Source: Escherichia coli O157:H7 (lineage in GTDB: Bacteria; Pseudomonadota; Gammaproteobacteria; Enterobacterales; Enterobacteriaceae). From it: a stretch of DNA of 64,000 nt. Location: NCBI RefSeq assembly GCF_013167455.1, contig NZ_CP038328.1. One strand, 5' to 3'. Shown piece after piece: positions 27,001 to 30,398 of this stretch (the first letter of the stretch is position 1; each line of letters begins with the position of its first letter). The position numbers are program-made.

Positions 27001-30000
27001 AGGGGCCGAAAGGTGACAGGGGAGAGCGGGGAGAGACCGGTCTGACGGGAAATGCAGGTCCACAGGGTCCAAAGGGAGATACCGGTACGGCAGGCCCGGC
27101 AGGCCCGGCAGGCCCACAGGGACCGAAAGGAGAAACAGGTGTGGCTGGCCCGGTAGGGGCAACCGGACCTCAGGGGCCGAAGGGCGACCCGGGAGAGACG
27201 CAAATACGGTTCCGTCTGGGGTCGGGAAACATTATTGAGACAAACAGCAATGGCTGGTTCCCGGATACAGATGGCGCACTCATCACCGGACTGACCTTTC
27301 TTGACCCCAAAGATGCCACACGGGTTCAGGGGTTTTTTCAGCATTTGCAGGTCAGATTTGGCGACGGGCCGTGGCAGGATGTCAAGGGGATGGATGAAGT
27401 GGGCAGTGATACAGGCAGAACAGGAGAATGACATGAACATACTAAAAAAACTTATGCAGCGTCTGTGTGGTTGCGGAAAGCATGATGACCGTGAACACGG
27501 GGAGTTACTTACAGCACAACTGCGACTGGGGCCGGCAGACATCCTGGAGTCAGATGAGAATGGCATTATTCCGGAGCAGGACAGGGTAATCACACAGGTG
27601 GTGATACTGGATGCGGATAAAAAGCAGATACAGTGCGTGGTAAGACCGCTGCAAATCCTACGTGCTGACGGGAGGTGGGAAAATATTGGCGGGATGAAAT
27701 AGCCGACGGGTTCACAAAAACCGGAGTCCTGCTCTGGTTTTTGTTGTCACGTATGGGGGATGTTTGTTACAGCTATTTAAGTCTGGAGTTCAAATTAAAA
27801 TAGGGAGCTTTGTTATGCCATTAACCTCAGATATTAGATCACATTCATTTAATCTTGGGGTGGAGGTTGTTCGTGCCCGAATTGTAGCCAATGGGCGCGG
27901 AGATATTACAGTCGGTGGTGAAACTGTCAGTATTGTGTATGATTCTACTAATGGGCGCTTTTCATCCAGTGGCGGTAATGGCGGATTGCTTTCTGAGTTA
28001 TTGCTTTTGGGATTTAATAGTGGTCCTCGAGCCCTTGGTGAGAGAATGCTAAGTATGCTTTCGGACTCAGGTGAAGCACAATCGCAAGAGAGTATTCAGA
28101 ACAAAATATCTCAATGTAAGTTTTCTGTTTGTCCAGAGAGACTTCAGTGCCCGCTTGAGGCTATTCAATGTCCAATTACACTGGAGCAGCCTGAAAAAGG
28201 TATTTTTGTGAAGAATTCAGATGGTTCAGATGTATGTACTTTATTTGATGCCGCTGCATTTTCTCGTTTGGTTGGTGAAGGCTTACCCCACCCACTGACC
28301 CGGGAACCAATAACGGCATCAATAATTGTAAAACATGAAGAATGCATTTATGACGATACCAGAGGAAACTTCGTTATAAAGGGTAATTGAAATGAACATT
28401 ACCCTTTATTTTATTTAATGAAACATCCTGCAAACTGATATGAATTACTGAATGAGGTTTTTATGCCTGTTACCACCTTAAGTATCCCAAGTATATCTCA
28501 ATTATCTCCTGCAGGAGTACAGTCTTTGCAGGATGCTGCCAGACTTGAAAGTGGAATAAGAATATCCATTGGTAGTGGCCAATATTCTGTTCACTATGTC
28601 CAGCTACTGGATGGATTTTCAGTTGAACCGGTGAGAGGAGGCTTACTGGATAGGCTATTGGGGCGTGAGCATCGAATGGAGAGAAGGGCTGTGGCTCTGG
28701 AAAGGCAATTAAATGGAGGTGTCGATTTTTTAAGTAGTGTTAATAACTATTTTCAGAGTGTCATGGCAGAACACAGAGAAAATAAAACAAGTAATAAAAT
28801 ATTAATGGAAAAAATAAATTCTTGTTTATTTAGACCTGATTCTAATCACTTTTCTTGCCCGGAGTCATTTTTGACATGCCCGATAACGCTGGACACACCT
28901 GAGACTGGGGTGTTCATGAGAAACTCACGAGGTGCTGAGATATGCTCTCTATATGATAAGGACGCGTTAGTGCAACTTGTTGAAACTGGTGGAGCTCATC
29001 CTCTGAGTCGAGAACCTATAACAGAATCAATGATTATGAGAAAAGATGAATGTCACTTTGATACAAAAAGAGAAGCTTTTTGTTGTAAGTGATAATTAAT
29101 GATATAAATGTAGTTTTATGTACTTTTATTTTTTACTAAAGCAAAATTAAGTTATTAAAATGGAGGGAGAGGAATGCCTGTAGATTTAACGCCTTATATT
29201 TTACCTGGGGTTAGTTTTTTGTCTGACATTCCTCAAGAAACCTTGTCTGAGATACGTAATCAGACTATTCGTGGAGAAGCTCAAATAAGACTGGGTGAGT
29301 TGATGGTGTCAATACGACCTATGCAGGTAAATGGATATTTTATGGGAAGTCTTAACCAGGATGGTTTATCGAATGATAATATCCAGATTGGCCTTCAATA
29401 TATAGAACATATTGAACGTACACTTAATCATGGTAGTTTGACAAGCCGTGAAGTTACAGTACTGCGTGAAATTGAGATGCTCGAAAATATGGATTTGCTT
29501 TCTAACTACCAGTTAGAGGAGTTGTTAGATAAAATTGAAGTATGTGCATTTAATGTGGAGCATGCACAATTGCAAGTGCCAGAGAGCTTACGAACATGCC
29601 CTGTTACATTATGTGAACCAGAAGATGGGGTATTTATGAGGAATTCAATGAATTCAAATGTTTGTATGTTGTATGATAAAATGGCATTAATACATCTTGT
29701 TAAAACAAGGGCGGCTCATCCTTTGAGCAGGGAATCAATCGCAGTTTCAATGATTGTAGGAAGAGATAATTGTGCTTTTGACCCTGACAGAGGTAACTTC
29801 GTTTTAAAAAATTAAGGTAGCAATGGCGGGTTAACTTTTCGTAAAATGAAATTAATTCTCGGTACGGCATGTAAAACGCGGCACCTCGTATGCAAGAACG
29901 TGCCGCGGTTGGCTGGTAAGCTTTTCGATAGTGCGAGTATCTAATGATTTCCAGCCGGAACTGATTCTATTGGAAAGAAATCATGGGCGCCAGATTGATT

Positions 30001-30398
30001 AGTTATAGATTTTTACTGTGGCAAAAATGGGACAAAAGGCCGCAAAAGGGGCAAAAATGGGGCAAAAAAAGTGTAGATTATTGTGCTTTATTGTAGTTGT
30101 TAATCCTGCCTAACATATTGAAAAACATAAAAGTTATTGTTCGTCAGATAGTTGCGGTTTTTACTCTGACTTGTTCAGGTTGTATTGTTCTTTCTTGCTA
30201 ATTTCTTGATTTTGCGACATTTAAAAGCGACTCAATTCGTTATATGGCATCAGAAGAGTATGCGTCATGCCGGAACGCCCAGCATAAGAAATCTGATATA
30301 AAAACTGTGGCGTGTATGGTACGGATTAGAGGGGAAAATGTCAGCACATTTGCGAAATGAATCAAAAAGCCCGCAGCAATGTGCGGGCGTTAGTGTCA

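Follow-up and report, generated by a model that had tools for sequence, protein, structure and literature searches.

What marks the right end of a prophage that carries three nleG effector genes, and which of the sequence features at its junction with the host belong to the attachment site? The question arises in the window, by which we mean the whole 64-kb stretch of DNA that was analysed, where the nleG gene at 29174..29815 is the last rightward gene of the prophage and is followed by the terminator of the host gene uspF. An earlier note had drawn attention to the interval 29816-30360 between the two, in which it had seen no ORF, a perfect inverted repeat and a series of phased A-tracts, and where it expected attR together with any remnant of the integration target.

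We show here that this interval is the attR of a Rac-family lambdoid prophage of 51.7 kb inserted in ttcA. We will further argue that the A-tract array is most likely a cluster of arm-type sites for the integrase IntR, and that the inverted repeat lies outside attR, in a conserved two-hairpin module. Taken together, this reading has in our estimate a probability of about 0.8. The junction itself is ordinary and already published; the arm-type sites and the hairpin module are the new detail. The features concerned are the following.

29174..29815, plus strand: nleG (DUF1076), the last of three effector genes (ORF list; RefSeq annotation of the identical record CP022689)
29874..29910, minus strand: hairpin 1, which holds the inverted repeat and a loop of 15 nt, with UUUUACAU next on the minus strand
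29911..29970, plus strand: hairpin 2, GGCTGG (29911-29916) with CCAGCC (29951-29956), with a weaker inner stem and the module tail (alignment, pair counts)
30020..30070, plus strand: P-arm array of five tandem GGGGCA(A)-type repeats, putative IntR arm-type sites
30111..30123, minus strand: IHF-like site TTTCAATATGTTA, one mismatch to WATCAANNNNTTR, between array and core; weak, chance matches being common
30161..30220, minus strand: ttcA 5' remnant, translated MSQNQEISKKEQYNLNKSE and then a stop; overlaps the core
30171-30196, no strand: attachment core of 26 bp, TTGTTCAGGTTGTATTGTTCTTTCTT, the identity segment of attL, attR and attB
30199..30211, minus strand: AATCAAGAAATTA, an exact match to the IHF consensus; lies within the ttcA remnant, host side of attR
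30221..30365, minus strand: native ttcA upstream region, orphaned and directed into the prophage; identical upstream of ttcA in strain EC16
30369-30388, minus strand: intrinsic terminator of uspF, a 7-bp stem and then TTTTTGATTC (terminator scan); host boundary of the finding

The prophage-host junction

Alignment with the empty site and with attL, which the earlier note had proposed, defines the core repeat as 26 bp at 30171-30196. This segment has a single exact match in the 64-kb window. Its second copy lies 51.7 kb upstream, beside ttcA, intR and xisR (locus L004, 27150-27175), and constitutes attL, and the core is present once in the empty-site strain EC16. From 30171 rightwards EC16 and the window have identical sequence; to the left of this point they are unrelated. 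To the right of the core there is host DNA, comprising what remains of the 5' end of ttcA, its upstream region and the terminator of uspF, and to the left there is phage DNA. Both attR and the remnant of the target are thus found where they had been expected: the core lies inside the interval and has its twin at attL, and the 5' end of ttcA is the remnant. It had also been allowed that the core might map elsewhere and that the region might be conserved host sequence in strains without the prophage. The latter is the case for the right 190 bp (30171-30360), whereas the left 355 bp are phage DNA, and the attR idea stands because the core lies inside the interval.

The distribution among genomes has the same two-sided character. 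While some part of the query finds a match in 5403 of the 5426 E. coli genomes (the host side, in the rows sampled), at least 80% of the interval is present in only 426 of them. An intact attP is found contiguously on the IMG/VR contig L196, in the order int, the P' repeats, the core, the five-repeat array and the hairpin. The search of IMG/VR with IntR for attP variants kept 80 loci that are 99-100% identical; most of these end right at the int stop, and L196 is the only one with an intact attP. A 26-bp recombination site, labelled attB, is annotated at the homologous position in phage Rac-SA53 (KU052037), and the attL and attR sequences of K-12 Rac and of the rac-like CP-933R and Sp10 have been shown by Liu et al. 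(2015, PMC4632033). The prophage thus entered the ttcA 5' end by tyrosine-integrase recombination, with strand exchange within 30171-30196; intR and xisR of this prophage are both intact by annotation.

We now turn to the host side. The ttcA remnant starts with an ATG at 30220 and retains 17 native codons (30220-30170), which read MSQNQEISKKEQYNLNK and are followed by SE and a stop in phage DNA; in EC16 the ttcA CDS begins at the homologous position. The gene called 'ttcC' in PMC8407004 matches this remnant. The earlier statement that the interval holds no ORF is therefore nearly right: there is no credible gene, but the 17-codon 5' remnant of ttcA is present on the minus strand. For the orphaned upstream region we infer promoter activity at attR; a sigma-70-like match, CTGACA-17-TACCAT from 30344 to 30316, was obtained in the promoter-like scan, and it is weak and within chance. 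The uspF terminator was located as described before, at 30369-30388 on the minus strand by the terminator scan, and the uspF CDS lies at 30396-30830 (RefSeq annotation).

The A-tract array and its possible partners

The A-tracts that had been noticed are real. They form an array of five [G/A]CAAAA units at 30020-30070, with the C at 30022, 30033, 30043, 30052 and 30063, that is, with spacings of 11, 10, 9 and 11 bp and a mean of 10.25. The tracts themselves are A5, A4, A4, A5 and A7, starting at 30023, 30034, 30044, 30053 and 30064, so that the array is phased in the sense of at least three tracts of at least 4 bases at 10-11 bp. It is the densest cluster of the motif in the 64-kb window and, with five units in 47 nt, lies far beyond chance, since 100 shuffles never gave more than three units in 52 nt. 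The array is placed about 120-161 bp from the core centre (-120 to -161). In comparisons of Rac-type sites, similarity sets in about 8 nt ahead of the array, which hardly varies from site to site, whereas the sequence on either side of it drifts.

In our judgement the array is most likely the P-arm cluster of arm-type integrase sites, a reading drawn purely from comparison. The adjacent tyrosine integrase, IntR, has a separate N-terminal arm-binding domain (Pfam Arm-DNA-bind_2, residues 5-69, E = 3e-26) in addition to the Phage_integrase catalytic domain at residues 205-391. The P' arm, found at attL, carries GGGGCAAA repeats at +65, +76 and +85 from the core centre, which end at the intR stop; this cluster comprises two or three units (L004, 27225-27250). 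The P'1-P'3 sites of lambda are placed in the same way relative to core centre and int stop. The GGGGCA motif is found in both arms of the intact attP of contig L196. Motif repeats that are distinct from the core and occur in both the P and P' arms are, like the separate arm-binding domain, what a lambda-type att site has.

The same arrangement is seen in more distant phages. Phages phi330, Mulock, CobraSix and Tritos encode integrases with 42-43% identity to IntR, and in each of them the TGCCCC(A) repeats fall into exactly two clusters, the first located at the int stop and the second about 200-210 bp beyond it. Elsewhere in their loci of about 3 kb the motif is almost absent, and the sequence between the two clusters differs from the Rac core. 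A PDB sequence search with the IntR arm-binding domain returned relatives of the catalytic domain only, and in the searchable literature we found no binding experiment with IntR on the array repeats.

A complex of the lambda type can be pictured on this basis. The N-terminal Arm-DNA-bind_2 domain of IntR would bind the array while the C-terminal domains hold the core, and the two or three repeats adjoining the intR stop would form the P' arm at attL. Bending by IHF-like sites and by the in-phase A-tracts would help to build the complex, which would serve both integration and XisR-dependent excision. It is important to point out that the matches to the IHF consensus are not above chance in our scan. 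The site at 30111-30123 has a counterpart in the attP of L196 (1769-1781). At the equivalent of the perfect consensus on the host side, K-12 shows an IHF peak at attL and none at attR (PMC8407004).

Two other explanations of the array were considered. Tandem direct repeats at a mean spacing of 10.25 bp, present in attR only on the P-arm side of the core, could also be excisionase sites, on which XisR would assemble as a head-to-tail filament that bends the P arm; lambda Xis on X1-X1.5-X2 and L5 Xis on four tandem sites are the models for this. Five tandem helically phased repeats in the P arm are indeed the usual layout of such sites, and xisR adjoins intR. However, the motif also clusters in the P' arm at the int stop, where excisionase sites are unexpected, and the two-cluster pattern follows the integrase subfamily into the four other phages. 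XisR binds an attR fragment that includes the array, but it shifted the AttR probe and not the AttM probe (PMC4632033); this one published gel shift, made with His-tagged protein, is the only binding evidence against XisR sites. We have mapped AttM to 2372-2662 of the K-12 locus L003, where it ends 1 bp before the core and contains the K-12 counterparts of the hairpin and of the whole array. An array of XisR sites is improbable. The other possibility is that the A-tracts are plain curved DNA, a structural bend or an H-NS target that involves no sequence-specific protein. Tracts of A4-A7 in phase with the helix at a mean of 10.25 bp should give strong curvature, and H-NS is reported to affect Rac excision (PMC4632033). 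The conserved part across relatives is, however, GGGGCA and not the A-run; the units of the relatives, ATGGGGCAT, have no A-tract, and among Rac-type sites it is the G-rich part that is invariant. Curvature as the whole explanation is very improbable, and it may rather be an added property of the arm-type sites. The array is thus part of attR and in phase, as supposed in the earlier note, but it is better read as GGGGCA(A) arm-type sites than as bent DNA alone.

The inverted repeat and the two-hairpin module

The perfect 8-bp inverted repeat is present as described, with cgcggcac at 29877-29884, a 15-nt spacer and gtgccgcg at 29900-29907. By itself it is not significant: of 1000 dinucleotide shuffles made of the 545-bp region, 170 contain a perfect 8-bp repeat with a spacer of 3-20 nt. 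We nevertheless count it as real because it is conserved with compensatory changes elsewhere: hairpin 1, of which it forms the stem, is kept with such changes in K-12 Rac, in Rac-SA53 and in about 100 distinct viral-contig sequences. Together with hairpin 2 it makes up a module of about 95 nt (29874-29970), which lies 20-154 bp downstream of tfa, pin or nleG and is succeeded by dinI or int, encoded on the other strand.

The alignment supports the proposed structure. In it 88.9% of the cells pair, compared with 25-52% (mostly about 30%) when the partners are slid, and there are 42 double-change cells against 18.7 in shuffles. Compensatory changes from G-C to A-U are seen at two pairs of hairpin 2. 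The two parts differ in the strand on which they fold better. For hairpin 1 this is the minus strand in 53 of 98 homologues and the plus strand in 18 (p = 6e-5), and in many variants C-A mismatches of the plus strand are G-U pairs on the minus strand. For hairpin 2/3 it is the plus strand in 87 of the 98, a preference that is partly built in, since the search pattern fixes the inner stem and a plus-strand G-U pair. In some phages, such as that of locus L217, hairpin 1 is replaced by an unrelated hairpin with the minus-strand U-run kept.

With somewhat less certainty than for the array, we infer that the inverted repeat is not part of attR and is the stem of hairpin 1 of this module. Its function is putative, the most likely one being that of a terminator of leftward transcripts. 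On the minus strand, hairpin 1 would then terminate transcripts or form their 3'-end structure; these would come from int through attP in the free phage and from the orphaned ttcA upstream region in the lysogen. Hairpin 2 may serve rightward transcripts, and the module as a whole marks the end of the rightward tail-fibre or cargo genes in many lambdoid phages. In the window, the minus strand of hairpin 1 has an 8-bp stem with seven G-C pairs and then UUUUACAU, and a U-run at this place is found also in K-12 and L196 (UUUUU/UUUUCUU). Yet only 27 of the 98 homologues have, on the minus strand, at least four U within 8 nt after the stem, and a canonical intrinsic terminator is therefore not general for the module. 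The loop of 13-15 nt is also longer than the short loop (about 3-8 nt) of such terminators; our terminator scanner allows loops of 3-8 nt, and hairpin 1 was consequently not called by it.

It is also conceivable that the module acts on the plus strand, as a terminator or 3' end for the nleG transcript or the late one, or as a small RNA related to CssrB. It always follows a rightward gene by 20-154 bp, hairpin 2/3 has the plus-strand preference given above and an inner stem with a conserved plus-strand G-U pair, and in the plus-strand sequence 29870-29907 aligns with the hairpin at the 3' end of the CssrB model. That match, however, reaches 25.3 bits against a gathering score of 76 and covers the last hairpin only. 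At least four U after hairpin 1 are found on the plus strand in none of the 98 homologues, the U-rich stretch lies about 8 nt away from the stem of hairpin 2 and is degenerate in the window, and the variants of hairpin 1 favour the minus strand. We regard this as unlikely on the whole; it would be compatible with the leftward-terminator explanation if the module consists of back-to-back transcript ends. To a role as protein-binding dyad of attR, for Int, Xis or a host factor in recombination, we give next to no credence. The repeat does have dyad symmetry and lies less than 300 bp from the core, but phages whose att sites and integrases are unrelated, one of them with lambda Int, carry the module as well, and similarity among Rac-type att sites begins only at the array. 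Many different stems, compensatory changes and the G-U asymmetry speak for nucleic-acid pairing, and XisR did not bind AttM, which holds the K-12 counterpart of the hairpin.

The least credible reading of all is that of a small protein encoded across hairpin and array. In some Rac-bearing RefSeq genomes a 57-aa hypothetical protein (WP_001157925.1) is annotated on the homologous K-12-type sequence, over the array, and this ORF is probably spurious. In the window its frame ends after 9 codons (MQERAAVGW and a stop), and many homologues have a stop at the same place; the frame upstream is not conserved owing to indels in the stem, and the start codon, for which no ribosome-binding site is apparent, lies inside a hairpin loop. 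A coding reading of the hairpin (RRMQERAAAGW...) was likewise rejected, as there is no long ORF in 43 loci, the stop varies and the upstream frame is broken by indels.

Returning to the leftward-terminator explanation, the inverted repeat at the junction is no attachment feature, and comes closer to the alternative in the earlier note that the region holds a transcript-related element. A plain terminator would not need sequences as conserved as those of the loop and of hairpin 2/3, and this hints at another function. The conserved loop, the covarying stems and the opposite strand preferences suggest that the module is more than a plain terminator. It sits where rightward late or cargo genes meet leftward dinI or int genes, and the possibilities include an insulator of convergent transcription with back-to-back ends, a sib-like control of int or dinI messages, and a small RNA. 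That the module is a structured RNA element, so far undescribed and widely conserved among lambdoid phages, is a tentative proposal, possible if on balance doubtful. No Rfam family covers the module, the only match in the region being the sub-threshold one to CssrB, and nothing reached the gathering score on ten other module-bearing loci. The AgvB, AsxR and EcOnc RNAs were discarded as matches, being located at the pR' insertion site for extra cargo genes and not at the att end. The Pas sRNAs were set aside too, as their preprint ties them to tRNA-like sequences; no placement at an att end was found in it.

Implications and relation to known systems

The results fix the exact right boundary of a prophage with three nleG effector genes, and show the native ttcA 5' end and its upstream region left stranded at attR. 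They also provide a testable map of the IntR recombination site, with a GGGGCA arm motif in two clusters about 200 bp apart, a layout common to a large integrase subfamily that includes the Stx-phage integrases. Work on how Stx and effector prophages are maintained stably or mobilised, or on new integration vectors, could draw on this map. Should the module be a regulatory RNA, it would be a common yet unannotated feature of lambdoid phage genomes.

The closest systems are K-12 Rac, CP-933R of EDL933 and Sp10 of Sakai, which have the same target (the ttcA 5' end), the same 26-bp core and the same neighbours, with uspF, ompN and nifJ on the right and ttcA, intR and xisR on the left. From array to core, the P arm is about 80-90% identical to that of K-12 Rac, and the N-terminus of TtcA varies as in the Rac systems, with MQENQQIT from the phage and MSQNQEIS in the native gene. 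The present prophage is full-length at 51.7 kb, with tail genes and three nleG genes, whereas K-12 Rac is a remnant of 23 kb. The complete two-hairpin module is kept here, and K-12 Rac has hairpin 1 only. K-12-type arms have an inverted copy of the motif beside the core, which is degenerate in this prophage. Arm-type sites are not described in PMC4632033, from whose text the word 'arm' is absent.

Several aspects are lambda-like: int adjoins the P' arm with tandem arm-type repeats that end at the int stop, a second arm cluster is found across the core at a distance of 110-160 bp, there are putative IHF-type sites on both sides of the core, xis is upstream of int, and a putative transcript-ending element lies beyond attP and is parted from int by integration. 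In the attP of L196, hairpin 1 has a sib/tI-like position: it lies across the core from int, about 300 nt past the int stop. BLAST against lambda 26500-29500 (the attP/sib region) gave no similarity, and in locus L009, which has lambda Int, the lambda sib/tI hairpin and the P arm lie between the module and the core. With no BLAST match, and with the two elements being separate neighbours in L009, homology of the module to lambda sib/tI was rejected, and the analogy is one of position only. Unlike in lambda, the arm-binding domain is of another Pfam family (Arm-DNA-bind_2), and the motif is GGGGCA, that of lambda being (C/A)AGTCACTAT. The five P-arm repeats are contiguous, whereas P1 and P2 of lambda are split by an IHF site, and the identity segment has 26 bp compared with 15 bp in lambda.

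Among RNAs, hairpin 1 resembles on the plus strand the 3'-terminal hairpin of CssrB (Rfam RF02799, chromosome-encoded Shigella sRNA B), with a similar stem and loop; the first 140 or so positions of the model have no counterpart here, and the viral contigs with a CssrB-type loop gave no CssrB match at E <= 0.001.

The integrases of the VT2-Sakai/933W type are, together with those of phi330, Tritos, Mulock and CobraSix, 42-43% identical to IntR over the full length; the VT2-Sakai/933W type uses other targets, such as wrbA. The Stx-phage-type integrases and IntR have an N-terminal signature in common, PTGVE..G.(I/L)RIWF, and these relatives have two TGCCCC(A) clusters about 200 bp apart, one of them at the int stop, as here. 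They differ in having two or three ATGGGGCAT repeats per arm and no A-tracts, and their P' repeats lie inside the 3' coding end of int, while those of the Rac type come after the stop codon.

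The prophage-host junction and ttcA

The window is 100% identical to Escherichia coli strain CDC#03-98 (CP022689), the annotation of which has the last of three DUF1076 (nleG) genes on one side of the interval studied (29816-30360) and uspF, ompN and nifJ on the other. Among the matches listed for the E. coli complete genomes (n=5426), most share with the interval no more than its right part, which begins at window 30171 (query position 356) and in those genomes overlaps the start of ttcA. Strain EC16, with the order dbpA, ttcA, uspF, represents the empty site; it is identical to the window rightwards from 30171 and unrelated to it to the left. 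The earlier note had expected attR and a remnant of the integration target in this region, and both are indeed found. Alignment with EC16 and with the attL end defines a 26-bp core, and the 5' remnant of ttcA is present on the minus strand:

30171-30196, attachment core (26-mer), single occurrence within the window: TTGTTCAGGTTGTATTGTTCTTTCTT
30220-30170, minus strand, original ttcA N-terminus (translation): MSQNQEISKKEQYNLNK

A second copy of the 26-mer is located on the same chromosome, 51.7 kb upstream, adjoining ttcA, intR, xisR, ralR, recT, recE, kilR and sieB. Two core copies at this distance, one of them beside ttcA, intR and xisR, identify the prophage as a full-size member of the Rac family, with its attR in the interval. 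The attL and attR sites of K-12 Rac have been described, and those of CP-933R and Sp10 shown (Liu et al. 2015, PMC4632033), and the 26-bp site carries an annotation in phage Rac-SA53; the junction is thus already known biology. As a finding, this is a prophage-host junction of an established type, and its location was given correctly.

In the frame of the ttcA remnant, the native codons are followed by two more codons and a stop in phage DNA, and the working ttcA at attL has its N-terminus supplied by the phage. The start codon of this hybrid gene is 51 bp from the intR stop codon (27199-27251 of L004, the attL region), and the repeats of the P' arm, one of the two att flanks, occupy the gap. 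In lysogens, ttcA is without its native upstream region, which has been left at attR (window ~30221-30365). Transcription of ttcA in the lysogen must start inside intR or run through it.

Some variation was observed around this locus. Some E. coli genomes match only rightwards from 30324 (window 30324-30395), and have to the left of uspF neither an empty ttcA site nor a Rac-type attR. In GenBank record ON032529 ('Salmonella phage SPF_0923'), the sitABC manganese transporter genes are directly beside a Rac-type attR, followed by uspF, ompN and nifJ; as the record runs on into these genes, the deposited 'phage' contains host DNA. In the window, ompN (30971-32084, minus strand) consists of two overlapping ORFs, 30971-31738 and 31713-32084, and appears to be a pseudogene in this strain, because RefSeq marks it as 'frameshifted' in the identical record. 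The MicC sRNA gives a full-length Rfam match (125 bits) at 32309-32429 (+); this is its usual position, with ompN on one side and nifJ/ydbK on the other.

A hairpin module to the left of the attachment site

The inverted repeat pointed out in the earlier note is confirmed in the sequence, with the perfect complements cgcggcac (29877-29884) and gtgccgcg (29900-29907) separated by a 15-nt spacer. When the 545-bp interval is shuffled with its dinucleotides preserved, 17% of the shuffles contain a perfect 8-bp inverted repeat with a spacer of 3-20 nt; in statistical weight, the repeat differs from the A-tract array described below. In K-12 Rac, the same hairpin is found with a compensatory G-C to A-T change. 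Many lambdoid phages with other integrases, Stx phages among them, carry the first 125-140 bases of the interval at their right ends (87-93% identity). We infer that the inverted repeat is not part of the attachment site, and it appears to belong to a hairpin module that is widespread in lambdoid phages but not annotated (29874-29970 in the window). Two pattern scans of IMG/VR yielded about 100 distinct versions, with the following features:

Hairpin 1: G+C-rich stem of 9-13 bp; loop near TCGTATGCAAGAAC
Hairpin 2: GGCTGG pairs with CCAGCC; weaker inner stem inside
Module tail: near GTTACCGATTTTAC

In a 29-sequence alignment, 88.9% of the cells pair in the proposed structure, compared to 25-52% (mostly ~30%) when the partners are slid. 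Double-change cells number 42, compared to 18.7 in shuffles, and seven pairs are changed on both sides. No conserved reading frame was found across the module.

The module is always 20-154 bp past the last rightward gene, which encodes tail-fibre assembly, a pin-type invertase or nleG, and the leftward gene that follows it is dinI (ending at +94) or int. In a contig with lambda's own integrase (L009), the lambda sib/tI hairpin and the P arm are located between the module and the core, and the switch from module to lambda sequence takes place exactly at the module's end. On the basis of these neighbours and of the L009 arrangement, the module would be a boundary element of the late/cargo block and not a component of the att site. 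Its identity with sib is ruled out, as L009 carries lambda sib/tI separately between module and core. In phage phi330 (L006, ~3408-3511), a leftward dinI is placed between the hairpin module and attP, with a LexA-box-like CTGT-N8-ACAG upstream of it; the ATGGGGCAT repeats of the P arm are ~60 bp away from this box.

The evidence on strand points both ways. Of 98 homologues, 53 give a more stable hairpin 1 as the minus strand and 18 as the plus strand (p = 6e-5), and in many variants plus-strand C-A mismatches correspond to minus-strand G-U pairs. Hairpin 2/3, in contrast, folds more stably as the plus strand in 87 of the 98 cases, a preference to which the search pattern itself contributes. 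On the minus strand, hairpin 1 is followed by a U-run in the window, in K-12 and in L196, an IMG/VR contig with intact attP, and some phages have an unrelated hairpin in its place with the minus-strand U-run kept. We would guess that leftward transcripts end at hairpin 1. Such transcripts would come from int through attP as long as the phage is free, and in the lysogen from the ttcA upstream region stranded at attR. Rightward transcripts may be served by hairpin 2. The terminator assignment is uncertain: a clear U-run is present in no more than 27 of the 98 homologues, intrinsic terminators usually have shorter loops, and the loop sequence is conserved beyond the needs of a plain terminator.

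No Rfam family covers the module, the only match being the CssrB terminal hairpin at 25 bits against a threshold of 76, and the prophage sRNAs described in EHEC are located elsewhere. The hairpin module is the sole part of the interval that could prove new.

At a K-12-type Rac attR in CFSAN061771 (L310, 550-723), RefSeq lists a 57-aa hypothetical protein, WP_001157925.1, which by its coordinates appears to start at an ATG in the hairpin-1 loop and to read across the putative arm-site array. It is probably not a gene, because its frame stops after 9 codons in the window. In a module-bearing viral contig (L225, 2022-2220), a 225-bit match to Rfam IS009, a candidate E. coli sRNA family, is found ~80 bp upstream of the module. 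It may lie within a tail-fibre-assembly coding sequence, and the family may not be a real RNA gene.

The phased repeats as putative arm-type integrase sites

The phased A-tracts of the earlier note correspond to five [G/A]CAAAA units at 30020-30070, with the C at 30022, 30033, 30043, 30052 and 30063, i.e. with spacings of 11, 10, 9 and 11 bp. Nowhere else in the 64-kb window does the motif form so large a cluster (five units in 47 nt), and in 100 shuffles no cluster exceeded three units. The window, K-12 Rac, Rac-SA53, the Rac-type attR of ON032529 and the intact attP contig were aligned. In this alignment the array is near-invariant, while the stretch from array to core drifts. Since the Rac-type att similarity starts only ~8 nt ahead of the first repeat, conservation of the att site ends with the array on this side, -120 to -161 relative to the core centre.

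The motif of the array recurs at attL, oriented as in the array: GGGGCAAA is found twice, together with a weaker third copy, in the gap that separates the start codon of the hybrid ttcA from the intR stop (+65, +76 and +85 from the core centre). The joined site is seen in L196 (IMGVR_UViG_2529293146_000014, ~1590-1960), in the order int stop, P' repeats, core, five-repeat array, hairpin; this public viral contig is an assembled copy of the element in its excised form. In the integrase IntR, the catalytic domain is preceded by an N-terminal Arm-DNA-bind_2 domain (residues 5-69, E = 3e-26). The integrases of phi330, Klebsiella phage Mulock, Enterobacter phage CobraSix and Escherichia phage Tritos are 42-43% identical to IntR. 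In these four relatives, TGCCCC(A) repeats with 11-bp spacing form exactly two clusters, at the int stop and ~200-210 bp beyond, the motif is almost absent elsewhere in the loci, and the sequence between the clusters differs. From these observations, the A-tract array is read as the P-arm cluster of putative arm-type integrase sites, expanded to five copies, for which the two-cluster layout in the relatives is the strongest evidence. In this comparison, GGGGCA is the conserved element and the A-run a Rac-specific extension. From general knowledge of A-tract bending, the in-phase tracts probably add intrinsic curvature, which would help the P arm to fold back onto the core.

The main alternative is that the array consists of sites for the excisionase XisR, and it is weakened by one published experiment, in which XisR shifted a 294-bp AttR probe but not a 291-bp AttM probe (PMC4632033). 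Mapping of the published primers shows that AttM corresponds to 2372-2662 of L003, the K-12 Rac attR region, and that it contains the inverted repeat and the entire array in their K-12 versions, ending one base short of the core. An inverted copy of the arm motif, TTTTTGCCC, is located a few bp left of the core in K-12 (L003 2648-2656), Rac-SA53 and L196, and is degenerate in the window (TTTTTACTC at 30158-30166); it might serve Int as an additional site or contribute to recognition by XisR. IHF-type consensus matches flank the core at 30111-30123 (one mismatch) and 30199-30211 (perfect), such matches being near chance level. A genome-wide IHF footprint has binding at the attL consensus and not at attR (PMC8407004).

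With putative arm-site clusters on both flanks, the Rac-type att site would share the architecture of that of lambda, in a different subfamily of integrases.
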